Source: Minisyncoccota bacterium (GTDB lineage: Bacteria; Patescibacteriota; Minisyncoccia; Phycocordibacterales; GWA1-40-21). Taken from it: a DNA stretch of 64,000 nt. Below the pieces are notes generated by a model. The model did no database searches, had not been told where the DNA came from, and was given only the letters and a program-made list of their open reading frames with translations. Position 1 is the first letter of the stretch, and each line of letters begins with the position of its first letter. The position numbers and the translations under genes are program-made. The stretch spans positions 193,946-257,945 of the forward strand of contig JBAZRH010000002.1 of the NCBI GenBank assembly GCA_041663045.1, in the 5' to 3' direction. This document shows positions 1 through 43,006 of this stretch, in pieces.

Positions 1-679
1 AATCAATCGAATCCAAAATAACACCATCTTTCTTAAGTTTGCCAGTAAAATCAACTATTGAGTCAAGATTTTTCTCCCACATATCAATAAAAGTATTCTG
101 GGAAAGAAGATGGTTGTGAATTCCAAGCTTGATTTTATTTTTTTTACGTAAAATATTAAGCTTATCAAAAATTGGCATCACCTCAGAAATATGAAAGCCT
201 AAAAAAGAATCTGAGCTATAAGGTAATTCAGCATTGGAAACTTTAACTCCAGTATTAATACGAACTAAAACTTCAAGAAAGGCACCAATGGCTATATCTT
301 CAAGCAAAATCTCAAGTTGCTGAATAGAATCTACACTAAAACGGCTAACACCAAATTGACGAATCTTTTTATATTGTTCCCTAGTTAAACTTGGTGATTG
401 AAAGATGATTTTATCCTTTTTATAACCTTTCTTGATTGCAACTTTTTCTAGTTCTTCGACTGAAGAAATTAATAAACTACAACCCTCAGCTAAAATCACT
501 TCTAAAATCCCATCCTCGGGATTAGTCTTATGAGAATAGGCGATCTCACCTATAAGTGAGAATTTAACTTCTTTGATCAAATCAATTAAACTGACTTTAT
601 CAACAACAAAACAAGGGGTCTGATTTTGCCATATGTCTTTATTTTTATTTAAGAAACTAATTACAGTATTTTTATCCAT
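1..679 (-). CDS. PLP-dependent decarboxylase, Orn/DAP/Arg decarboxylase family (N-terminal part; gene runs off window start)
   Basis: Absent from the ORF track because it is truncated by the window edge. Minus-strand translation from ATG (complement 677-679) reads MDKNTVISFLNKNKDIWQNQTPCFVVDKVSLIDLIKEVKFSLIGEIAYSHKTNPEDGILEVILAEGCSLLISSVEELEKVAIKKGYKKDKIIFQSPSLTREQ..., resembling the N-terminal TIM-barrel region of fold-III decarboxylases. Confidence 0.5.
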   Translation of the reverse strand, partial: MDKNTVISFLNKNKDIWQNQTPCFVVDKVSLIDLIKEVKFSLIGEIAYSHKTNPEDGILEVILAEGCSLLISSVEELEKVAIKKGYKKDKIIFQSPSLTREQYKKIRQFGVSRFSVDSIQQLEILLEDIAIGAFLEVLVRINTGVKVSNAELPYSSDSFLGFHISEVMPIFDKLNILRKKNKIKLGIHNHLLSQNTFIDMWEKNLDSIVDFTGKLKKDGVILDSID

Positions 680-16858: not shown

Positions 16859-17131
16859 ATGAATAAAGCAGCAATTGTAGATGCAGTACACGGCGTTCTA
16901 AATGGTACAAAGGTACAAGCAGAACAAGTCGTTGATACAGTATTTGATTCAATCGTCGCTTCTTTGAAGAAAGGCGAAGAAGTATCAGTAGCAGGTCTCG
17001 GAATCTTCTCAGTCAAGGCAAGAGCAGCCAGACAAGCAAGAAACCCAAGAACAGGCGAAACCATTCAGGTTAAGGCCATGAAGGTTCCAAAATTCAGAGC
17101 AGCAAAGGCTTTGAAGGATGCAGTTAAGTAA
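16859..17131 (+). CDS. hup: DNA-binding protein HU
   Basis: MNKAAIVDAV...GEEVSVAGLGIFSVKARAARQARNPRTGETIQV, the canonical HU fold. Confidence 0.9.
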   Translation: MNKAAIVDAVHGVLNGTKVQAEQVVDTVFDSIVASLKKGEEVSVAGLGIFSVKARAARQARNPRTGETIQVKAMKVPKFRAAKALKDAVK

Positions 17132-19255: not shown

Positions 19256-20014
19256 ATGCAGAAATTGGATAAAATAATAGAAAAAGCTTCATTTAGTAAG
19301 CGAGAAGCCGAGATTATATCGGTTATTTATAAAAACGGACATGCAAATATCCTCTCCTTATCAAAAGATATAGGTCTAGCTCGCCCAAGTATTTATTCAG
19401 CAGTAAAAGATTTGACGGCAAGAAGAGTTTTGTCGAAAAAGAAGAAAGGCAAGAGAATTGTTTTTGTAATAAATAAAGATTTTGATATTCGCTCTCTATA
19501 CCAAGAGACTTCTAAACAGATATCTGAATCGCTTAATCTTCCAGTAAAGAAAAACTCTGATAGTGGCCTAATGCCCTATTTCAAAGATTTGAATGGATTT
19601 TTGGATTTGGCTCTTAAATTAAAGAGAGGAGAAGTGATTTATTCTATCGAAACGCCCGAAGATATAGATGTTCTACTTAAGAATACAGAGAAAGAGTGGT
19701 TGAAACATTGGCAAGAAACCGTAGCCAGGAAAGGCATTGTGTTAAAAGGTATAAGTAGTCCGACGGGTCTAGATATTTTTAAGAAAAGCCTTGGAAATCT
19801 TTCAGAAATACTCAAAAAGAGAAGTGGAAGTGCTAGATTTATCTCTGATATTAAAATACAGACAAGCATTGTGTCATTTAAGGATTATATTTGTTTCTTT
19901 AATAGGCGAAATAAGAAATTTGTTGTTATAAAAGATGAAACTATAGCGACGACGATGCAATCGATAATAGATTTTATCTATAATATTTCAGAGTATAAAA
20001 ACTTATTCCCTTAA
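19256..20014 (+). CDS. TrmB-like transcriptional regulator (winged HTH)
   Basis: N-terminal HTH ILSLSKDIGLARPSIYSAVKDLTARRVL; paralogous to 26495..27265 and 37505..38269. Confidence 0.55.
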   Translation: MQKLDKIIEKASFSKREAEIISVIYKNGHANILSLSKDIGLARPSIYSAVKDLTARRVLSKKKKGKRIVFVINKDFDIRSLYQETSKQISESLNLPVKKNSDSGLMPYFKDLNGFLDLALKLKRGEVIYSIETPEDIDVLLKNTEKEWLKHWQETVARKGIVLKGISSPTGLDIFKKSLGNLSEILKKRSGSARFISDIKIQTSIVSFKDYICFFNRRNKKFVVIKDETIATTMQSIIDFIYNISEYKNLFP

Positions 20015-22592: not shown

Positions 22593-24131
22593 TCACTGTA
22601 CCCAATGCTTCCCTCTTATCTTTTTCACCTCCTTTTCATTTTCTATTTCCTTTTTTTCTTTCCCTTCCTCGCCGATTTTCTTCAATTCTTTTATTGGCAA
22701 CTTCATAAGTTCTTTCGCACGATTTTCCAAATATTCTTCAGTATTGAGTTTTGGATCTTCAAGTACATCTTCGAGAAGTGCATGCAAAACAAAGCCAACT
22801 TTTGGCCCCGGAGCTTCTTTTGTGACTTCCATAAGTCTTCCCCCATCTATTTTCAGCATTCCCACAGAAATCGGGTCTCTAGTCGCCTCTTCTATCATGG
22901 CATGATATTTTCTTAAGCGATACGGATCGGCTTTTGGTCTGCCCATACCTATCCTATCGGCGATTCGCACATTCATCAAATCCCAAATATTATCTTTGCC
23001 TACTTGAGCGATAATCCTTCTCACAGCCGACAAACTTATCTGCTCAGTATCAGAGAAAAACATATGCCATCTGACAAGCTTAACCACTTTTTCAATAACT
23101 TTTTTCGGATATTTTAAATCGGTGAGAATTTTTTCTGTCATTCTCGCGCCGATCACTTCATGCCCATAGAAAGTCCATTTTTCCTTGCCCGCCTCTTTGG
23201 AGGGGCCCTCGGCCCCTGCCCTGCGAGATTTAGGCTTGCCGATATCGTGAAGCAATGCAGATAATCTTATATCCAAAGGCCACTTTTTATCCGCCGTCTC
23301 CTGAAGCGCCCTCAAAGAATGTTCCCAAACATCATAAATATGGGCACCCTTTTGTTCTATGCTGATAGTCTTTTCCAAATCAGGAATAATATATTTCAAA
23401 ATTCCAAATTTTTGGCAGGATTTTATGCCTTCCATTGGCGTATCCGACATTATTATTTTTGTAAATTCATCGCGTATTCTTTCTTTAGAGATTTTTGCAA
23501 GAAGCCCCGATTCTACAAGCAAAGCTTTCTCCGTGGCTTTATCAATTTCAAAACCGACAAAATTTGCAATCCTTACTGCACGCAAAATCCTCAAACCATC
23601 TTCTTGAAATCTTTCATGTGGGTCGCCGACAGTCCTCAAGACTTTTTTCTTCAAATCATCTTGCCCGCCATAATAGTCCTCAATATTTCCTTTATAAAAT
23701 CCTTCCTTACTCCCCTCTTCTGTGATATTCAATGCAATTGCATTTATGGTGAAATCTCTTCTGTGAAGATCATCGTCTAGCTTTTCACTAAAAATAACTG
23801 CATCGGGTCTCCTATTATCTGAATATTCTGCTTCAAGTCTGTATGGAGTGACTTCTATCACCTTCACTGCTTCGTCTACGGTATTTTCATTTACAACACC
23901 AACAGTACCAAAAGTATTTTCATAAAAAGTCTTTGGAAAAGTGGCAATAATCTGTTCCGGCTTTGCATTTGTCGTAATGTCCCAATCTTTTGGAATAATG
24001 CCGAGCAAAATATCTCTCACACATCCGCCTATGAGATACGCCTCAAAACCCGCCTTTTTCAAAGTCTGCGACGCCTCCCAAACCTCCTTTGGTATCGGCC
24101 CGAATTCTGTTTTATTTGAAGTTTTCTTCAT
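22593..24131 (-). CDS. cca: CCA-adding tRNA nucleotidyltransferase with C-terminal HD domain
   Basis: LIGGCVRDILLG...DWDITT head domain and HD motif HDIGKP, plus a K/E-rich tail. The likely start is MKKTSNK; the track start at 24221 adds an improbable 30-aa extension. Confidence 0.85.
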   Translation of the reverse strand: MKKTSNKTEFGPIPKEVWEASQTLKKAGFEAYLIGGCVRDILLGIIPKDWDITTNAKPEQIIATFPKTFYENTFGTVGVVNENTVDEAVKVIEVTPYRLEAEYSDNRRPDAVIFSEKLDDDLHRRDFTINAIALNITEEGSKEGFYKGNIEDYYGGQDDLKKKVLRTVGDPHERFQEDGLRILRAVRIANFVGFEIDKATEKALLVESGLLAKISKERIRDEFTKIIMSDTPMEGIKSCQKFGILKYIIPDLEKTISIEQKGAHIYDVWEHSLRALQETADKKWPLDIRLSALLHDIGKPKSRRAGAEGPSKEAGKEKWTFYGHEVIGARMTEKILTDLKYPKKVIEKVVKLVRWHMFFSDTEQISLSAVRRIIAQVGKDNIWDLMNVRIADRIGMGRPKADPYRLRKYHAMIEEATRDPISVGMLKIDGGRLMEVTKEAPGPKVGFVLHALLEDVLEDPKLNTEEYLENRAKELMKLPIKELKKIGEEGKEKKEIENEKEVKKIRGKHWVQ

Positions 24132-24523
24132 TAGATGAATTTTAGCAGATATTTTGATAAAAAGAAAAGCGCACTTCCCGGAGGTCATGCGCGATTGGAG
24201 AATGAAACACATCAGAGGCACTTCAGTGTGTTAGGAAGTGAAGGATTGCAATCCCCACAATAAACAGAAACACAATCGAAAATGCTTTGACGTTGTCTCG
24301 GTTGGTCAGGAAGAGATATATTCTCGACTTAAAGAACTCTTCTTCTGCGTGATGCTGTTCGTTCTGTACGTGCGTAAACGGAGGTGTCGGAGGCATTTTG
24401 TCCAGTCCTTTCTTAATGTGCTTTTTTCACAGTGTGATTACTGTAAAAATCATCAACTTTGATAACTAATTAATAATATCAGCCTTTAGACAATATGTCA
24501 AACTAACTCATATTTTTATTTTG

Positions 24524-24595
24524 TGCGCTCGGCAGGACTCGAACCCGCAACAACAGTTCCGAAGACTGTTGTGATATCCATTTCACCACGAGCGC
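24524..24595 (-). tRNA. tRNA-Arg (anticodon UCG)
   Basis: Acceptor GCGCTCG/CGAGCGC, D-stem GTGA/TCAC, anticodon stem ACAGT/ACTGT with loop CTTCGGA, T-arm GCGGGTTCGAGTCCTGC. Confidence 0.85.
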
Positions 24596-24756
24596 AATAT
24601 TAAACTCCCCCATTAGGATTCGGTCACGACTTTTGCTCGGCCGTCGCCATCGCAAAGTCTCGACCCCGACTCGCTTCCAATCCTGCTGGCTTAGGGCCCG
24701 CTCCGTCCTTTAAATCTTTCGCAAGTAAAGACTTTTACTTGCTTTCTAAGATTTAA
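24596..24756 (-). repeat. GC-rich tRNA-associated structured element (family member)
   Basis: In tRNA orientation it contains GGAAGCGAGTCGGGGTCGAGAC, a stem-loop CTTTTGC-GATGGCGACGGCCGAG-CAAAAG, and ends GTGACCGAATCCTAATGGGGGAG; G+C far above flanks. Confidence 0.6.
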
Positions 24757-24809
24757 ACCCACAACAACAGTTCCGAAGACTGTTGTGATATCCATTTCAC
24801 CATGGGAGC
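24757..24809 (-). pseudogene. partial tRNA copy: D-arm and anticodon arm identical to tRNA-Arg(UCG), with a different 5' acceptor strand and no T-arm
   Basis: 41 nt identical to the tRNA-Arg body; acceptor 5' strand GCTCCCA. The element's terminal AATGGGGGAG could pair with it. Confidence 0.55.
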
Positions 24810-24896
24810 ATTTCATCATAATACGCTAAATTGGCTAAAAATCAAAAAACAATTTTGTTTTTTTATAAAATTGTGTATAATACAAAAAGTAAATTT

Positions 24897-24967
24897 GCGG
24901 GCGTAGTTTAATGGTAGAACTAGTCCTTGCCAAGGATTGGGTTCGGGTCCGATTCCCGACGCCCGCA
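24897..24967 (+). tRNA. tRNA-Gly (anticodon GCC)
   Basis: Acceptor GCGGGCG/CGCCCGC, anticodon stem AGTCC/GGATT with loop TTGCCAA, T-arm TCGGGTCCGATTCCCGA; TATAAT at 24876-24881 upstream. Confidence 0.85.
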
Positions 24968-25017
24968 CACATAGCAAAAAAGCGCGTAACTGCGCTTTTT
25001 TGCTATGTGTGCGGGCG
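24960..25017 (+). terminator. 26-bp perfect inverted repeat incorporating the tRNA-Gly acceptor 3' strand
   Basis: CGCCCGCACACATAGCAAAAAAGCGC-GTAACT-GCGCTTTTTTGCTATGTGTGCGGGCG. Confidence 0.6.
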
Positions 25018-25548
25018 CAATGATTTTTATAACATTCACACTAAATCCTTTCACATGAAACACGACTTTCTCTCAAAGACACACCTCCCTACTTCAAAGA
25101 CACATAATGACATGAAAAGCAGATATGAAAATAAGTGGATAATTTATAGCTTTTAATATAAGGGTATTTTCACATGAAACTGTGGATAACTATGTGAATA
25201 TGTGTATAAAAGACGACCAATAGAATCTGGCAAATTCGAGCCTTTTAGATGTCTTTTATTAAAAATACGGCTAACTGTGAGGGTAGGACATAAAATACAT
25301 TGTCTGAAATACAATCTGTCCTATATCAAAAACGTTTCTTAGAAACGTTTTAATTTGTCTCGTGTGAAAAGATTAGAATGTGTTAAAGAGACCAAAAACA
25401 CACAAAAATCAATAAAAAATTCAAAAATCTATAATAAACAAGTAAAAATACGTGAAAATCTTGAGTAATTATAAGAATATAATGATTTTTACACGAAATG
25501 AATGTTTTTTTGTGATATTTTGATTAATTATGATATAATTTACTCATA

Positions 25549-26004
25549 TTGAAAGACAAGACAAAAAACAATGAAATAGGGAAATTAGGTGAGGATTTGG
25601 CGTGTAGGTTTCTGGTGAAACACGGTTTTAAGATAATTGATCGAAATTATTGGAAAAAATGGGGGGAAATTGACATAATTTCCCAAAAAGTCAATAAATT
25701 GCATTTTGTAGAGGTAAAAAGTGTTTCCCGTGAAAGTTTACATGGTGTTTCATGTGAAAAGGGTGGCTTTAGACCTAAATCAAATGAATTTGATCGGTCG
25801 AACACCCAATCTGATGGGTGTTTTAGACCGGAAGACAATATGCATCCCTGGAAGCTACAAAGACTATCTAGGACAATTCAAACCTATTTGCTGGAGAAAG
25901 ATGTTTCAGATGAAACAGAGTGGCAATTTAATGTAATTACTGTCTATATTGATATGAAAAGGCGAGTATCAAGGGTTTTTCTGCTGGAAGATGTGATACT
26001 TTAG
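25549..26004 (+). CDS. YraN-family (UPF0102) endonuclease-like protein with an internal insertion
   Basis: GKLGEDLACRFLVKHGFKIIDRNYW..GEIDIIS....LHFVEVKS core; TTG start; TATAAT at 25534-25539. Confidence 0.6.
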   Translation: MKDKTKNNEIGKLGEDLACRFLVKHGFKIIDRNYWKKWGEIDIISQKVNKLHFVEVKSVSRESLHGVSCEKGGFRPKSNEFDRSNTQSDGCFRPEDNMHPWKLQRLSRTIQTYLLEKDVSDETEWQFNVITVYIDMKRRVSRVFLLEDVIL

Positions 26005-26494
26005 ACATGTTTCACGTGAAAAAACCCAATAAATCAGCCATAATTTGGCTTTTTAAGTATTAAAAAACCGCCCCTCTATATACAAGTTCTGAGCGAAATT
26101 GTTTTTGAGATGAGCGGTTGTCGAAAGAGAATTCCCAGTGTTACTACATTCTCGACTCCTAGTCGTCTTTTTTGAGAAAAGATCAAGACAGGTTTTTCGA
26201 GAGGAAAGCTAATGATGTATCACCAAGTAAGCCTTTCTATTGCGGAGTTAGCTAGACTCCCTTAAAGAACGAAGTTAATGCCGGTGGAGAAAGCTTTTGA
26301 GTTGCATTTCTAAAAACTTTTTCCGACGAATAACTTATTTCACCCCTCACATATTTTAATCCCTCTTAAAGGACATGTAAAGGACATACCTGTGGATAAC
26401 TCAAAACAAAAATGTCCTTTATAAAAGAGAGGAGCCGTGGCTAATAATAAGAGTATTATTAATTTATGAAAGTTATTGATGATTACAGACTTGG

Positions 26495-27265
26495 TTATTT
26501 TTCTTTTGCAGGTGTAGAAATTTTCCAAATATTTTCAAATTGTAATTTCATCAGGTCGGAAAAATCTTTTGAATGGACGACAAAACCAAATCCTTCTTTT
26601 TCGGAAGAAAGAAAAGCGACTTTGTCTTCATACAGCCAATAACCCATATTCCATGTCATACCAACCGGTGCAAAGCGCAAGTCGCGCAGAGTATCCTCGC
26701 CACTTTTCAAATATGGATATTGCTCGGTATCCAAGACTTTATCACTCGGCCATATCGCACGCAAAAAAATATTTCTTTTTACTCTCTTTTCATTTAAATC
26801 TCTTAAATATTCCGGTCCAAGCACTTTCATCATTTCACTCATTGGCCAAAATAGGACTGTTTCTATATCTCTATTTAGCATTATTGTGTTCAAGACTTGT
26901 CTCATACCCTCCTTTCCTGAATAAAACTTAATCTGTGGCTCTACAAAAGCCACTTTTTGCAATAAAGAGGGAAGCGAGAGCTCAAATTGCTTTTTCTCAT
27001 TCTCCAAAGATTTGATTTTGTCGGCTAGCATTTCCTGAATATTCCGCACATTATCAATCTGAAATACTTTCTTATACTCCTCCTTTCTTTCTGTTACCAA
27101 GCCGTGTTTTATCAATATTTTAAGATGATCATACACAGATGGGCGGGGAATACCCACTCTATCTGCCAATTTACTAGCAGGCGTCGCTCCATTTGCCACC
27201 AAGTCATTGAAGACTTTTTGTGTGATTTCAGACAAACCAAGTTCTTGAAATACTTTTGTAAACAT
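26495..27265 (-). CDS. TrmB-like transcriptional regulator
   Basis: N-terminal wHTH ASKLADRVGIPRPSVYDHLKILIKHGLVTE. Confidence 0.55.
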   Translation of the reverse strand: MFTKVFQELGLSEITQKVFNDLVANGATPASKLADRVGIPRPSVYDHLKILIKHGLVTERKEEYKKVFQIDNVRNIQEMLADKIKSLENEKKQFELSLPSLLQKVAFVEPQIKFYSGKEGMRQVLNTIMLNRDIETVLFWPMSEMMKVLGPEYLRDLNEKRVKRNIFLRAIWPSDKVLDTEQYPYLKSGEDTLRDLRFAPVGMTWNMGYWLYEDKVAFLSSEKEGFGFVVHSKDFSDLMKLQFENIWKISTPAKEK

Positions 27266-27428
27266 TTCTTTAACTTTATTATATGTCTAATTATATACCT
27301 CTATTTATCTTTGTCGAGATTCGACGACAGCTTTACATTACTAGACAAAGGTGCTATATTGTTGTCAGATGATTAAGGTAGTAGGAATTCAAACGAATTT
27401 CGCCTTGATTATAGGTCTTTGAAAGGAA

Positions 27429-27863
27429 GTGAGTATGAATTATGGAATGATCGCGATCATACTGTTCGTCATTCTGTGCCCGTGCATTAGCTACATTATT
27501 ATAAAGAATAAGATGCATATCTGGGACGGCGGATTGATGCTGGTTATAAAAGATGGTGAAGACAAACAGACTATAGTCCCATTGAATTGTAATAAATTCA
27601 ATGAAGTGGACTTGAAGAAAGAGACGGTGGTATTGGGTTTGTTTATTCCAGGTGGAGATAGCCACTACATTCCGAGTGTACTGTTTCGTGACATTAAAGT
27701 CACATTTGAACTGAACGATGGACTATTCTGTTATTCAGTTGAGAACACAGACGCCGGATTATATCTCATGCTTCATAAGCCAATGGATCATAGATATCGA
27801 ACAGTAGCTCTTGATGTGTGGCGGATGGATTATTCGGTTACCATTCTGTTCAATCGGAGATAG
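27429..27863 (+). CDS. hypothetical protein with N-terminal TM helix
   Basis: 144 aa; hydrophobic N-terminus, then a soluble domain. Confidence 0.4.
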   Translation: MSMNYGMIAIILFVILCPCISYIIIKNKMHIWDGGLMLVIKDGEDKQTIVPLNCNKFNEVDLKKETVVLGLFIPGGDSHYIPSVLFRDIKVTFELNDGLFCYSVENTDAGLYLMLHKPMDHRYRTVALDVWRMDYSVTILFNRR

Positions 27864-27895
27864 GGCGAAACTCTTGGGGAAAGACTTCAAATTTC

Positions 27896-27990
27896 CCCTT
27901 CTTATCAAACTCATCACTAAAACAAAAAGTGGTAAGTTTGTAGGAAGATATAGGGTCTTCTTAAACAGGTTCTTTGAGAAAGGGAAAAAC
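27896..27990 (+). promoter_or_regulatory. conserved structured 5' leader, copy 1 of 3 (Shine-Dalgarno-sequestering hairpin)
   Basis: ~95 nt aligned with the copies at 28221..28316 and 36451..36548: CTCATCAC/GTGGTAAG stem, GGAAG/CTTC stem, and TTCTTT/AAAGGG covering the Shine-Dalgarno sequence; preceded by a terminator-like hairpin at 27876..27898. Confidence 0.5.
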
Positions 27991-28170
27991 ATGAATATGT
28001 ATTTTGTTTTACCTGGTTTGGTTACCTTCATTCCCGGGCTTCTCATTTCTGTGGGCGCTTTGGGCGATCCTTCGAATAAGAAAATAGGTTTGGTCGGAAT
28101 TGTTCTAGTTCTGGTTGGGGTATCACTTGCCTCAATTGGCTCTGCATCATCTACAATGATATTAAAGTAG
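27991..28170 (+). CDS. small membrane protein (two TM helices)
   Basis: The internal ATG of track ORF 27811..28170 sits right after leader copy 1: MNMYFVLPGLVTFIPGLLISVGALGD... Confidence 0.4.
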   Translation: MNMYFVLPGLVTFIPGLLISVGALGDPSNKKIGLVGIVLVLVGVSLASIGSASSTMILK

Positions 28171-28220
28171 TTGACTGCAGTACTTCGGGCAACCGCTTCG
28201 CCCCACAAGCGAAACGGTTG

Positions 28221-28316
28221 CCCTTCTTATCAAATTCATCACTAACAAAAATGTGGTGAGTTTGTAGGAAGGCAAAACGCTTTTCTAAACGAGTTCTTTG
28301 AGAAAAGGAGAAAGTT
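28221..28316 (+). promoter_or_regulatory. conserved structured 5' leader, copy 2 of 3
   Basis: CCCTTCTTATCAAATTCATCACTAACAAAAATGTGGTGAGTTTGTAGGAAGG...TTCTTTGAGAAAAGGAGAAAGTT-ATG; preceded by a hairpin at 28187..28223. Confidence 0.5.
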
Positions 28317-28787
28317 ATGTGGCAATTCATATCCGCAGTGTTGTTCGTGGTGGCGACCTCGATGATCAGTCACTATCTGGTCAAAAAAAGCCTGACCCCG
28401 TGGAATGGTGAGATGTTTTTGATTTCGAATTACCATGAGCAAAAGCTAGGAATAGTCAGTCGGTTGACTGAAGAACATGGAGGAAAAATATTTAGTGACA
28501 AAGTTGTCACTCCTACGGGTTTTCACAGAGATATCTGTCTACCCGAAGCGACCATTATTAACTCTCTTATGTTTAGTGAGTCTACCTGTGAAAAGATGCC
28601 TTTTATTCGTATAGCTTTAAAGAAAGGGTCTGTAATCACTTCTGTGGGTTGGCGCATTGCGGTCAGTATTGACGAAGTGGACATGTGTTTTGAAGAGCCT
28701 GTTGATGGAAGTAAGTTTGATTGCCTCTGTGTGATTATGGAATCTCAACTAAACAAAAGGGTTTACACAATTAATTTCAACGCATAA
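28317..28787 (+). CDS. hypothetical protein with N-terminal TM helix
   Basis: 156 aa; architecture resembles 27429..27863. Confidence 0.4.
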   Translation: MWQFISAVLFVVATSMISHYLVKKSLTPWNGEMFLISNYHEQKLGIVSRLTEEHGGKIFSDKVVTPTGFHRDICLPEATIINSLMFSESTCEKMPFIRIALKKGSVITSVGWRIAVSIDEVDMCFEEPVDGSKFDCLCVIMESQLNKRVYTINFNA

Positions 28788-28956
28788 CCTATTCCTTGCA
28801 ATATGTGTTTATAGATGTTGATACTCAATAAATCGGGCGGGGTTTGCGAAGCAAACCCCGCCTTTTCTTTTGTATTTCCAACATCTTTCTGGTATTTGCA
28901 TCCTATATTATCATATGATAATATAGGATATGTTAGTAATTTAATATATATAAAAT

Positions 28957-29178
28957 ATGAGTACAATATCTGTTCCACTTCCTGCAAAATTGGAAGAAAA
29001 ACTGAATAATCTTGTGAAGTCTGGATATGGTTCAAACAAAGCCGACGCTGTTCGCCGAGCTATTTTAAGTGCATCGGAAGAAGAGGCGATACAGGATGTC
29101 TTGCAAGCGCAGCATGAAATAGCTATGGGCAAAGGGTTGCACGGAGATTTAAGAGAATTAGCAAAAAGATTCAAATAA
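28957..29178 (+). CDS. type II antitoxin, ParD/RHH family
   Basis: 73 aa; N-terminal beta-strand then ..KADAVRRAIL, typical of ribbon-helix-helix antitoxins; a toxin gene follows 1 nt downstream. Confidence 0.55.
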   Translation: MSTISVPLPAKLEEKLNNLVKSGYGSNKADAVRRAILSASEEEAIQDVLQAQHEIAMGKGLHGDLRELAKRFK

Positions 29179-29179
29179 A

Positions 29180-29440
29180 ATGCTAAATCTTATTTATGCA
29201 CCGATTTTTGTAAAGAAATTTAATAAACTAGAGGAGAATTTACAGGATGAGGTGATTGAGAAAATAGAATTATTTAAAGATGCTCGAAATCACAAAATAC
29301 TGAAAGTCCATAAATTACACGGGCAATTCAAAAATTGTTATAGTTTTTCTGTAAATTATGAATTTCGAATCATTTTTTCCTATGCTTCTAAAAAAGATGT
29401 CGATATTTTGGCTATTGGAGGACACGATATATACAAATAA
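29180..29440 (+). CDS. type II toxin, RelE/ParE family
   Basis: 86 aa; YEFRIIFSYASKKDVDILAIGGHDIY matches the RelE/StbE C-terminal signature. Confidence 0.6.
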   Translation: MLNLIYAPIFVKKFNKLEENLQDEVIEKIELFKDARNHKILKVHKLHGQFKNCYSFSVNYEFRIIFSYASKKDVDILAIGGHDIYK

Positions 29441-37504: not shown

Positions 37505-38269
37505 ATGGAAAATAATCATTACATTGAGATATTGAAGGAAATCGGGCTATCAGAGCATGAAAGTGCAGTGTATTTTACTATGGTTTCCCTTGGTCCTTCA
37601 CCAGTGCTTAAGATCGCCAGAACTTCAGATGTAAAAAGGACTACAATCTATTCGGTTATTGATTCATTGAAAGAGAAGGGTCTTGTCAGGGTAGAACTGA
37701 AAGGTTTCAAAAGTCTTTTTGTTGCCGAAAGTCCGGAAAAGCTGGAGGGAATACTTGAACAGAGAAAAAATAAATTCAAAAAGCATTTGCTCGACTTTAT
37801 GCAGATTTATAATAAAGGTGGTGGCGAGTCTCTTATCAAAATCTATGAAGGACTTGAAGCGGTGAAGGGGGTATACGAGAGTTTGATAAATGATATAAAA
37901 AATGGAGAAGATTATCTGATTGTATCCGATGCAGAGAAATGGTTTGCACTTGATAGAGATTATTTTATGGATTTTACCGAAAGGAGATCTAAATTACCGA
38001 TAAAGATAAGAATGCTTATTCAAGATAATGAAGATGCTCAATATTTAAAAAAATATCAGAAAAATTTTAACTATACGACGAGGATTTTGCCAAAAGAGAC
38101 AAAACTCACGACGAATTTGATCGTAACTCCGCAAAAAGCCGTGGTGCACCAGCTCGTTCCGCCGATAATGGCTATTGTGATTGAAAATAAAAATATTATC
38201 AAAATGCATCAAGAGATGTTTGAGGTGATGTGGAAGTCGCTCGAAGATAAGGAAAGTGTGGGGGATTAG
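37505..38269 (+). CDS. TrmB-like transcriptional regulator
   Basis: wHTH ILKEIGLSEHESAVYFTMVSLGPSPVLKIARTSDVKRTTIYSVIDSLKEKGLV. Confidence 0.55.
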   Translation: MENNHYIEILKEIGLSEHESAVYFTMVSLGPSPVLKIARTSDVKRTTIYSVIDSLKEKGLVRVELKGFKSLFVAESPEKLEGILEQRKNKFKKHLLDFMQIYNKGGGESLIKIYEGLEAVKGVYESLINDIKNGEDYLIVSDAEKWFALDRDYFMDFTERRSKLPIKIRMLIQDNEDAQYLKKYQKNFNYTTRILPKETKLTTNLIVTPQKAVVHQLVPPIMAIVIENKNIIKMHQEMFEVMWKSLEDKESVGD

Positions 38270-41953: not shown

Positions 41954-43006
41954 ATGAATCCAGAAGATCAAAAAGTTGAAGAAAATAATGTATCTCCGGA
42001 AGTCAAAAGTGCTGTCTCCAGCGAACTTTCTTCTTATATGAACCCTCATCTAAGTACAGACATACCTACAGCTTCTCAATCAACACCAATAGGATCCATA
42101 AATACCAACGCGCCATTTATTGAGCAACAAGGTATAAAGTCTAAACCCATGATCAGGACTTTTAAAAGTGATGTAGAAGAGACAATACAGTCCCAACATC
42201 TCTCTTCTATAAATATTGCTCTTGCTGAAAACAAAAAGATGATGGAAAGAATACAAAATGCCGAGTTTGAACAAAAAACAGCAAAGAAGAATTATACTAT
42301 TTTAATAATCAGTACAATATTTATTGTGGGTGGCATCTTGGCATTTGCTGTACCATACTTTTTGGTAAATAGACAAAACACAGCTCCGGTTGTGCAGGTA
42401 AAATCAACAATGATAATAACTCCAGATCTTGATGAAAAGATAAATGTGGATGGATTAAATTTAGATAGAATCGCCTCTACTTTGTCTGAAAGAGTAGAAC
42501 AATCGTCAATACGACTTGGAGGTATTAAAAATCTTTATCTTACCGAAGGTCAAGCTGTAAATGAAAAGACTATAGATACTACAAAATTCTTATATCTTAT
42601 AAAATCACACACTCCCCCTGAAATACTGAGGACATTAAAACCTGAATATATGTTTGGAATGCATAATTTTAATGGAAATCAGAGATTTCTGATATTAAAA
42701 GTAGGTTCCTACGAAAATTCTTTCTCTGGGATGCTTGCTTGGGAGACAAATCTTTGGTCAGATTTTAAGACCTTATTTGCATTACCCACGATTATACAAA
42801 GCGGTCAGATAAAAGGTATTGAAATAGCGACATTTCAAGATGCGATATATAGTAATAAAGATAGCCGTGTAGTAAAAAATTCTTCCGGAAACATTATGTT
42901 CCTATATTCGATAATAGATAAAGATACTATTGTTATTACTACGAATACAAAAACTTTGAATGAAATAATTTCAAGAAGCTTGAAAGCACAGACGGTTACA
43001 CAGTAG
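41954..43006 (+). CDS. hypothetical single-pass membrane protein
   Basis: 350 aa; one TM helix at ~115-140. Confidence 0.5.
   Translation: MNPEDQKVEENNVSPEVKSAVSSELSSYMNPHLSTDIPTASQSTPIGSINTNAPFIEQQGIKSKPMIRTFKSDVEETIQSQHLSSINIALAENKKMMERIQNAEFEQKTAKKNYTILIISTIFIVGGILAFAVPYFLVNRQNTAPVVQVKSTMIITPDLDEKINVDGLNLDRIASTLSERVEQSSIRLGGIKNLYLTEGQAVNEKTIDTTKFLYLIKSHTPPEILRTLKPEYMFGMHNFNGNQRFLILKVGSYENSFSGMLAWETNLWSDFKTLFALPTIIQSGQIKGIEIATFQDAIYSNKDSRVVKNSSGNIMFLYSIIDKDTIVITTNTKTLNEIISRSLKAQTVTQ

Follow-up and report, generated by a model that had tools for sequence, protein, structure and literature searches.

parS-like sites and DnaA-box modules around yraN in a candidate replication origin region of a Paceibacteria genome

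Introduction

We know of no experimental work on where replication starts or how chromosomes are segregated in the Patescibacteria, which are very small and uncultured, and our full-text literature searches returned no description of parS or oriC in this group. Here we analyse a locus around the gene yraN in a 64,000-nt stretch of DNA (the window; positions 193,946 to 257,945 of contig JBAZRH010000002.1, assembly GCA_041663045.1; ~38% GC) from a bacterium of the Patescibacteria, class Paceibacteria. A preliminary description of the window had drawn attention to perfect DnaA boxes and to four copies of a 13-mer in the tracts that flank yraN, and had proposed a replication origin or DnaA-regulated region or, alternatively, an operator array controlling yraN. 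We find that the 13-mers, not recognised as such at the time, match parS, the centromere site of ParB, an identity that changes the likely mechanism, as these would be segregation sites and not generic origin repeats or iterons. We read the locus as a parS centromere with DnaA-box modules in the origin region and as the best oriC candidate of this genome, a reading to which we give a probability of roughly 0.55.

The closest described centromere is the chromosomal parS/ParB (Spo0J) system of the B. subtilis type; in B. subtilis, one parS site lies inside spo0J. The locus shares with this system the 16-bp palindrome (15/16 positions here, exact in 13 relatives), the clustering of several copies in the origin region, and the placement of some copies inside a coding gene, here yraN. 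It differs in that parA and parB neither adjoin the sites nor occur anywhere in the window, in that most copies carry a central G-to-A change, in the fixed distance to a DnaA-box array, and in that relatives add a variant palindrome, GTTACAYRTGTAAC.

Among origins, the likeness is to dnaA-distal and bipartite types, with the site placed at a skew switch (in relatives) and at a strand-bias switch. As in the dnaA-distal oriC of the E. coli gidA-oriC-mioC type, a same-orientation box cluster lies beside an AT-rich tract with dnaA far away; as in the bipartite origins of B. subtilis and H. pylori, two box-bearing tracts flank one gene, although the intervening gene is yraN here and not dnaA. Compared from sequence alone, the locus departs from known oriC types in having only ~4+1 boxes, no 13-mer repeats of the E. 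coli DNA-unwinding element kind, and no DnaA-trios.

DnaA boxes also occur in clusters that serve other ends: the B. subtilis DnaA-box clusters (DBCs) and E. coli datA buffer free DnaA, and neither is known to be located at a skew switch. With these and with DnaA-regulated promoters the locus has in common a high-affinity box with weaker neighbours in intergenic DNA near an origin, and, with the promoters in particular, one box immediately upstream of a -35 element. In contrast to what is known of datA and the DBCs, the box module lies on the skew switch itself in most relatives and is associated with parS and with conserved GACA motifs. Finally, the basal unwinding system (BUS) is defined by tandem DnaA boxes together with DnaA-trios (Pelliciari et al. 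2021, PMC8287927). The module resembles it in that two boxes stand in tandem, the better one leading and the weaker one following after 3 nt, and departs from it in that the perfect box comes last on the TTATCCACA strand, followed by GTTT and then by parS or variable sequence.

Results

parS-like sites cluster around yraN

The consensus of parS, the ParB centromere site, is TGTTNCACGTGAAACA (PMC7022226). The 13-mer is nearly palindromic; made perfect, it becomes TGTTTCACGTGAAACA, the chromosomal parS bound by ParB/Spo0J. It occurs as TTTCACATGAAAC at 25049 and 25168, the latter copy abutting a DnaA box, and as the reverse complement at 25747, while the fourth copy, TTTCACGTGAAA at 26010, is a perfect palindrome; these coordinates and those of the boxes agree with the preliminary description to within 1 nt. 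The gene and its sites are as follows.

25047-25062: parS-like CCTTTCACATGAAACA, 13-mer copy 1, 13/16 to TGTTTCACGTGAAACA
25166-25181: parS-like ATTTTCACATGAAACT, 13-mer copy 2, 12/16, abutting a perfect DnaA box
25357-25369: degenerate palindrome GTCTCGTGTGAAA, 176 nt after the box, at the position of the perfect or near-perfect parS of relatives
25549-26004, + strand: yraN, UPF0102 nuclease-like (PF02021, 2.1e-18)
25746-25761: parS-like TGTTTCATGTGAAAAG, 13-mer copy 3, 13/16, inside yraN, where it encodes VSCE
26008-26023: best parS of the window, TGTTTCACGTGAAAAA, 13-mer copy 4, 15/16 with a perfect palindromic core, 4 nt after the yraN stop

The sequence of 24906-26401 was confirmed at 100% identity by a Logan assembly of SRR18595301, made independently, and two Logan contigs were used to extend the sequence ~5 kb beyond each end of the window. 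The clustering is far above expectation: the 12-mer core TTTCAYRTGAAA occurs four times in the 64 kb, always within 25049-26021 (0.05 expected); 10 of the 11 window matches to the 13-mer with at most two mismatches lie inside 25049-26022; and all six sites matching TGTTNCACGTGAAACA with at most three mismatches lie in 25047-26023, against 0.44 expected and in 0 of 100 shuffles. The four copies first reported are those that keep the CAYRTG centre. Three weaker sites within yraN, at 25607, 25722 and 25902, have a variable centre and share only the GTTTC/GAAAC arms; they coincide with the conserved peptide motifs FLVKH, VSRE and VSDET, and may be weak parS sites or coding by-products. The YraN of the window also carries an insertion of ~50 residues outside the Pfam model, which matches residues 14-63 only; the protein has repeated copies of a VS(R/C/D)E motif, the codons of which make up the parS-like sequences.

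For comparison we used 80 loci from metagenome-assembled genomes (MAGs) of Paceibacteria, Zambryskibacteria and Nomurabacteria, retrieved by the window YraN at 44-63% identity; enrichment of parS and of its core was counted over 81 loci totalling 1.25 Mb. Every perfect parS site (13 of 13) falls within 1 kb of the yraN start, as do 28 of the 32 sites with one mismatch and, in the relatives, 259 of 325 parS sites; the window copies all fall within a single 1 kb. Near yraN the 12-mer core is 73-fold enriched and the DnaA box 8-fold. The exact 16-bp parS is present in 13 relatives, and a palindrome is found at +152..+212 of yraN in 13 relatives. The locus therefore shows both a match to the 16-bp palindrome and clustering in an origin-proximal part, as parS sites do. 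By their match to the palindrome the 13-mers are slightly degenerate parS sites, and it is highly probable that the locus functions as a parS centromere.

A head-to-tail DnaA-box array lies beside the parS-like sites

The DnaA box TGTGGATAA occurs perfectly at 25181-25189 and 26391-26399. AGTGGATAA at 25134-25142 is an 8/9 match, and there are further box-like 9-mers in the same orientation, TGTGAATAT at 25193 and TGTGTATAA at 25201. The left tract contains the following features.

25134-25209, - strand: module 1, four head-to-tail boxes read as TTATCCACA, at 25134 (8/9), 25181 (9/9), 25193 (7/9) and 25201 (8/9)
25206-25275: GACA inverted repeat AAAAGACG...TGTCTTTTAT, then a G-block AATACGGCTAAC, in fixed register between boxes and parS in relatives
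25350-25548: most AT-rich tract, with tandem 19-mers at 25395-25432; a candidate DNA-unwinding region on the basis of composition
25510-25539: yraN promoter TTGTGA-18-TATAAT, inside the most AT-rich tract

Module 1 thus packs four same-orientation boxes into 76 bp, with the second perfect box 1.2 kb away, and its last three boxes form the conserved triple TGTGGATAA-nnn-TGTGnAnAT-GTGTATAA. The interval 24750-25500 is the sole place in the 64 kb with at least three boxes (at most one mismatch) per 500 nt, so that a DnaA-box cluster of the kind sought at oriC is present at the locus. Over the whole window, exact boxes number three, two of them in this locus, against 0.61 expected, a count reached in 2 of 100 shuffles; boxes with at most one mismatch number 21 against 17.7 expected, and the window as a whole is therefore not enriched. 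That these motifs exceed chance is shown decisively by the comparison with relatives and not by the window alone. We consider it very likely that DnaA binds the boxes of the locus.

The two stretches that had been described as long, ORF-free and AT-rich are indeed free of open reading frames (ORFs), at 24969-25548 (580 nt) and 26005-26494 (490 nt), but only 25350-25550 is strongly AT-rich (78-82% AT), the remaining tract DNA ranging from 58 to 73%. In relatives, an ~80% AT block stands between boxes and parS.

The arrangement of boxes and parS is conserved in relatives

A perfect TGTGGATAA lies ~100-400 nt upstream of yraN in ~55 of the 80 loci, always in the same orientation, and perfect boxes reach 0.48 per kb near yraN compared with 0.06 per kb elsewhere in these loci. 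In 30 of 53 loci (2.6 expected) the densest cluster of boxes lies no more than 900 nt upstream of yraN. The conserved string aAC-TGTGGATAA-nnn-TGTGGACA-TGTGTATTAAAGACA amounts to three head-to-tail box-like 9-mers. The same three-box arrangement (TGTGGATAAcccTGTGGACATGTGGATAA) precedes dnaA by 96 nt in the unrelated metagenomic contig L135, which marks it as a genuine DnaA-box array type. Upstream of yraN, the box and TGTTTCACGTGAAAC supply the 8-mers with the highest enrichment.

Downstream of the box, parS follows at clade-specific fixed spacings of 157-161, 145-147, 127-129 or 99 nt, and short blocks (GACA inverted repeats and AATAYGGCT) stand at fixed register between the two. No consensus RNA fold was found in the box-parS interval on either strand (RNAalifold, -0.4/-0.5 kcal/mol for 19 sequences and -6.7/-5.4 for 10 sequences), from which we take the interval to be a DNA-level array of binding sites. 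A structured RNA in the left tract was rejected on this ground together with the lack of an Rfam match. Two modules are conserved, each consisting of a perfect same-orientation box with GGACATGT/AAAGGACA repeats. The GGACATGT/AAAGGACA motif, in either orientation, and AATAYGGCT(T/A)A are 3.5- to 9-fold enriched near yraN, around the DnaA boxes, and are not present in the dnaA-dnaN origins of the L025 clade described below.

We also scanned metagenomes for the box+GGACATGTG pattern, which returned 119 stretches, 80 of which were examined. Among the 65 examined stretches with enough downstream DNA, yraN adjoins the pattern in 49 and parS lies at +90..175 in 35. In five metagenome contigs from another organism (L101, L109, L127, L130 and L142), a parS-like palindrome comes 38 nt after a DnaA-box pair TGTGGATAActaTGTGGACATGT and makes up the stem of a terminator that separates convergent genes; adjacency of box and parS thus occurs outside Paceibacteria too.

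In relatives, the variant palindrome GTTACAYRTGTAAC comes after parS, often on the yraN -10 or start region. The variants GTTTCATGTATAAC and GTTACATGTGGAAC lie directly after the yraN TATAAT box (for example in L004, L005, L008 and L014), the usual position of a repressor operator. Judging from this placement, ParB or a paralogue may silence yraN.

Skew and inversions in relatives point to a probable origin at the module

The skew of 648 genes was pooled across 38 loci, each locus entering as a fixed effect. For a skew switch independent of gene strand, a pivot placed exactly at the module gives the best fit (side effect 0.049+-0.004, p=2e-26), with a sharp minimum in the residual sum of squares. 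For GC skew at third codon positions (GC3 skew), cca (the CCA-adding enzyme gene), yraN and every gene from -3000 to +1200 were left out; we found no strand effect (-0.009) and a side effect of 0.0495+-0.0077 (p=4e-10), with the right side exceeding the left in 31 of the 38 loci. The top-strand GC3 skew was as follows.

Left of the module, + strand genes: -0.063
Left of the module, - strand genes: -0.030
Right of the module, + strand genes: +0.065
Right of the module, - strand genes: +0.063

In 1-kb bins, all values to the right are positive and all to the left negative save the outermost (-10 to -9 kb, +0.017). This negative-to-positive switch of GC3 skew at the module is the classical signature of a replication origin.

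Gene order provides a second line of evidence. Around an origin or a terminus, one expects inversions that span a single fixed point. Window orthologues could be placed in the relatives 403 times: both side and strand had changed in 292 of these placements, neither in 100, and only 11 behaved in any other way. At least three distinct inversions can be told apart, all of them spanning cca, the module and yraN.

Inversion 1: the cca-module-yraN block alone; separates the clade of the window from most relatives
Inversion 2: cca through the gene at 41954; separates the window from L012
Inversion 3: YifB and its neighbour; L003, L009 and L012

The divergent gene orientation and the negative-to-positive direction of the skew switch identify the fixed point as an origin rather than a terminus. 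In most relatives, then, we think it very probable that the origin lies within a few kb of this block.

By tblastn against all loci, dnaA/dnaN was found 8-9 kb from yraN in L015, L018, L025, L036 and L134 only. The 13552/RsmE junction, where dnaA lies in the L025 clade, was tried as an alternative origin and rejected, since the other relatives have neither dnaA nor a canonical box cluster there; among 13 relatives with both flanks it is a box-free spacer of 47-150 nt in about half, the rest holding other sequence without dnaA.

Skew and gene orientation in the genome of the window

The cumulative GC-skew minimum of the window lies at 24-25 kb. We downgraded this raw curve as evidence for an origin, as gene strand explains it and the best change point in orientation is elsewhere. 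Up to 24.6 kb, 74% of genes lie on the - strand; between 25 and 48 kb the orientations are mixed, and from 48 kb onwards every gene is on the + strand. The bias persists in the 5-kb extension at either end. The window thus contains an origin-type divergence, but not a sharp one. At third positions the window has a GC skew of ~+0.14 with the coding strand and almost no replication component, whereas the pooled relatives show replication side and no strand component. By this contrast, drawn with L003, L009 and L012, genomes that are fairly close to each other differ in their mutational or codon bias.

A Pfam scan of 40 window ORFs returned no replication initiator and no partition protein, and no plasmid or phage similarity was found at the locus.

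A second box module at the promoter of a candidate non-coding RNA

The second ORF-free tract is not empty: it contains a second box module and a conserved candidate non-coding RNA.

26058-26346, - strand: candidate non-coding RNA of ~285 nt, ending in GGGGCGGTTTTTT by the yraN stop
26353-26381, - strand: leftward sigma-70-type promoter, -35 TTTACA at 26381-26376 and -10 TAAAAT at 26358-26353
26368-26420, - strand: module 2, AAAGGACATGTAAAGGACAT-acc-TGTGGATAA-...-ATGTCCTTT, with the perfect box at 26391-26399 bracketed by inverted GACA units
26440-26465: G-block-like GGCTAATAATAAGAGTATTATTAAT, the sole trio-like (NAN)n run of the window, 42 nt from the box

On the - strand the sequence reads TTATCCACA-ggtatgtcc-TTTACA-N17-TAAAAT, so that a consensus box stands just upstream of a promoter, 9 nt from its -35 element. 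Module 2 is conserved in the six closest genomes (the window, L002, L003, L009, L012 and L044) as AAAGGACATGTAAAGGACAtacc-TGTGGATAA-ct...ATGTCCTTT, and the promoter hexamers (-10 TATAAT or TAAAAT) with a spacing of 17-18 nt recur in all six, less exactly in L044. Conservation of the RNA element is confined to the same six genomes: it measures 230-270 nt, is convergent with yraN and has a conserved end, GGCGGTTTTTT, by the yraN stop; its counterparts are L002 6405-6672, L003 10436-10678, L009 10527-10801, L012 10452-10686 and L044 10439-10700. For the - strand the consensus fold reaches -21.4 kcal/mol and includes 15 compensated pairs, compared with -8.8 for the + strand; taken singly, the sequence gives a z-score of only -1.54, and no Rfam match was found for the element. 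We regard 26058-26346 as a candidate non-coding RNA with a DnaA box at its promoter.

Surroundings of the locus

The neighbouring features are as follows.

22593-24221, - strand: CCA-adding enzyme gene (cca)
Between cca and tRNA-Gly, - strand: tRNA-Arg, two copies
24897-24968, + strand: tRNA-Gly(GCC), left border of the locus
24960-25017: perfect 26-bp inverted repeat overlapping the tRNA-Gly 3' end, with an inner GCGC stem between an A-run and a T-run
26495-27265, - strand: gene for a TrmB-like helix-turn-helix (HTH) protein

All tRNA genes to the left are on the - strand, and tRNA-Gly and all those to the right on the + strand, the flip falling at 24810/24897. In the relatives, a tRNA 3' end precedes the box module in many loci and cca (- strand) lies upstream of it in 66 of 80. 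The inverted repeat at 24960-25017 is, from its sequence, a bidirectional terminator-like hairpin. Rfam searches (the window at the gathering threshold; 24200-27300 by E-value) gave only tRNAs and spurious hairpin matches, with none in the left tract at E up to 5.

Several other features of the region deserve mention. On the - strand, 24523-24810 contains a 55-nt direct repeat, 93% identical, that duplicates the 5' half of tRNA-Arg(TCG). A spacer of ~160 nt, GC-rich and hairpin-rich, separates the copies. The upstream one (24739-24810) scores 26.5 bits as a tRNA and so stays below the cutoff of 29. Possible explanations of the duplication are a decayed insertion, a tRNA that is split or interrupted, and a small RNA. 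An island at 27429-29440, inserted between the origin block and the syntenic exoIII gene, contains two orphan ORFs, without Pfam match and without homologue in any related locus, and a pair of 73 and 86 aa, of which the second is HigB/RelE-like. Within 20 kb there are genes for three paralogous TrmB-like winged-helix proteins of ~250 aa (19256-20014, 26495-27265 and 37505-38269), of which only the one at 26495 has a close counterpart (L009, 77% identity). About 8 kb from the module, 16859-17131 encodes an HU-like DNA-binding protein of 90 aa, identified by eye from its translation; this gene and several small CxxC zinc-ribbon proteins fill an apparent ORF gap at 16.6-19.2 kb.

Discussion

If the locus is both centromere and origin, ParB encoded elsewhere would nucleate on the parS sites, spread, and organise and segregate the origin region, while DnaA would bind the head-to-tail array at 25134-25209 and open the adjacent AT-rich DNA at 25350-25548. 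The left tract would then be an oriC detached from dnaA, as in E. coli, and we lean, with modest confidence, towards its being the actual unwinding origin of this genome. At the second box (26391), DnaA would control the leftward transcript of ~285 nt. The suggestion of an origin or DnaA-regulated region gains from the conserved position and orientation of the box in ~55 of 80 loci and from the GC3 switch on the module in most relatives, and loses the support of the genome's own skew, which is driven by gene strand.

A number of observations weigh against an origin at this place. Some concern the genome itself. Regression attributes the window skew to gene strand (strand 0.152; side 0.025+-0.016, p=0.14), its GC3 skew follows the coding strand on both sides of the module, and gene orientation is mixed over 25-48 kb with the best single change point at 47.9 kb. 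By tblastn over the window and its 5-kb extensions, neither dnaA nor dnaN lies between ~30 kb to the left and 44 kb to the right of the module, which bears out the earlier statement that dnaA is outside the window; adjacency to dnaA/dnaN is common for a bacterial oriC without being required. The preliminary description had named a skew minimum and a dnaA-dnaN region lying elsewhere as what would count against an origin, and part of this is what we see: dnaA is not nearby, and the skew follows gene strand. Nor did tblastn find parA or parB in the window or its extensions; with a query validated against Pfam, no ParB or ParA was found there or in any of 160 loci. The array has few boxes, one perfect and three imperfect, and a scan of the window and all loci found no DnaA-trio or basal unwinding element by the module boxes, with no run of at least three NAN trios within 16 nt of a box on the TTATCCACA strand; the (NAN)n run at 26440-26465 is wrongly oriented for a BUS. 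The box of module 2 is placed like a promoter element. As to the relatives, the flanking genes are homologous across loci, so that the pooled p-values overstate independence and inversion events are fewer than the raw counts.

The strongest counter-example is the L025-like clade, which keeps the module intact with negative skew on both sides and has dnaA 8-9 kb to the right of yraN (L015, L018, L025 and L036). Here the dnaA-dnaN spacers of L025, L036 and L018 hold tandem boxes and box-spacer-TAATAGTAATAG/TAATAGTAATAGTAATAA elements. The boxes are phased by 12 bp and accompanied by trios (L025 19240-19300, L036 20107-20350, L018 12220-12420), which by the criteria of PMC8287927 makes each spacer a complete basal unwinding system. 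The origin of this clade appears to be at dnaA, 9 kb from the module, and since the module is kept there all the same, its function does not require a role as oriC.

Such observations favour a different account, in which the locus is a centromere with a DnaA-box cluster that is not an origin, oriC being a canonical dnaA-dnaN region outside the window and the boxes serving to regulate yraN and the leftward non-coding RNA or to titrate DnaA. This account would fit the L025-like clade, where the module stands alongside a trio-bearing dnaA-dnaN origin 9 kb away and the skew switches at dnaA-dnaN and not at the module; it would also fit the module's lack of trios, the position of the module-2 box 9 nt upstream of a conserved -35 element, and the missing side effect in the skew of the window. 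It has more difficulty with the remaining relatives. In ~70 relatives outside the L025-like clade the GC3 sign change falls exactly on the module and not kilobases away, none of these genomes has dnaA within 10 kb, the 13552/RsmE junction is without dnaA and is a short box-free spacer in about half of 13 relatives, and the window itself holds the strand-bias divergence but not dnaA. We treat a centromere with non-origin boxes as the main alternative and as somewhat less likely than an origin at the locus.

A lineage-specific repressor with an operator array controlling yraN, the likeness to parS and DnaA boxes being coincidental, is improbable. The proposal draws something, if weakly, from the variant palindromes GTTACAYRTGTAAC and GTTTCATGTATAAC on or just downstream of the yraN -10 in relatives, from GACA and G-block motifs that have no known binder, and from the three TrmB-like HTH genes of the window. 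Yet the palindrome is parS, and its exact 16-bp form in 13 relatives together with the exact 9-bp DnaA consensus would demand two independent coincidences, which is implausible. Sites also lie inside and after yraN, and no regulator gene is syntenic: the TrmB-like neighbour adjoins yraN in 1 of 80 loci and was rejected as cognate binder for that reason. Further alternatives are chance matches, integration of a mobile element or plasmid-type replicon at tRNA-Gly, and a gene for a structured RNA within the left tract. The abutting tRNA gene, the orphan-gene island with a HigB-like toxin at 27.4-29.4 kb and an exact-box count only modestly above chance in the window might point to them. They are very improbable and largely refuted by the comparative data, given position, order and spacing conserved across 80 genomes, no plasmid or phage similarity, no adjoining rep or integrase gene (in relatives, the XerC-like gene of 32.3 kb is found in synteny), and neither an Rfam match nor a consensus fold of the box-parS interval.

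Returning to the locus as centromere and origin candidate, a wider proposal, which we hold to be rather unlikely as it stands, is that in most Paceibacteria the origin has moved from dnaA to a compact origin-centromere cassette between the cca/tRNA genes and yraN. The cassette would consist of the three-box array, the GGACATGT/AAAGGACA and AATAYGGCT sites for a further factor, and parS 99-161 bp away. Initiation would be physically coupled to ParB loading; YraN, whose gene is always embedded and carries parS, would belong to the origin machinery; and the L025-like clade would represent the ancestral state or a reversion. The components are of kinds already known: parS, DnaA boxes and dnaA-distal origins. 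What appears to be new is the composite, with its fixed distance between box and parS, its extra conserved motifs, its constant embedding of yraN, and the contrast, at the level of clades, with a canonical dnaA origin; none of these turned up in the literature searched.

Should oriC lie elsewhere, an ordinary origin-proximal parS cluster with a DnaA-box cluster would remain. For the biology of the group, the locus offers a sequence-defined centromere and an origin candidate for a whole class, along with a natural contrast between clades that have their origin at dnaA and clades that apparently have it at the cassette. The fixed geometry of box and parS suggests a coupling of initiation and ParB loading, and the pattern box-N(99-161)-parS upstream of yraN may serve as a practical marker for orienting Paceibacteria MAGs and for coverage-based estimates of growth rate. 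It also gives a first functional lead for YraN/UPF0102, a widespread and uncharacterised family.

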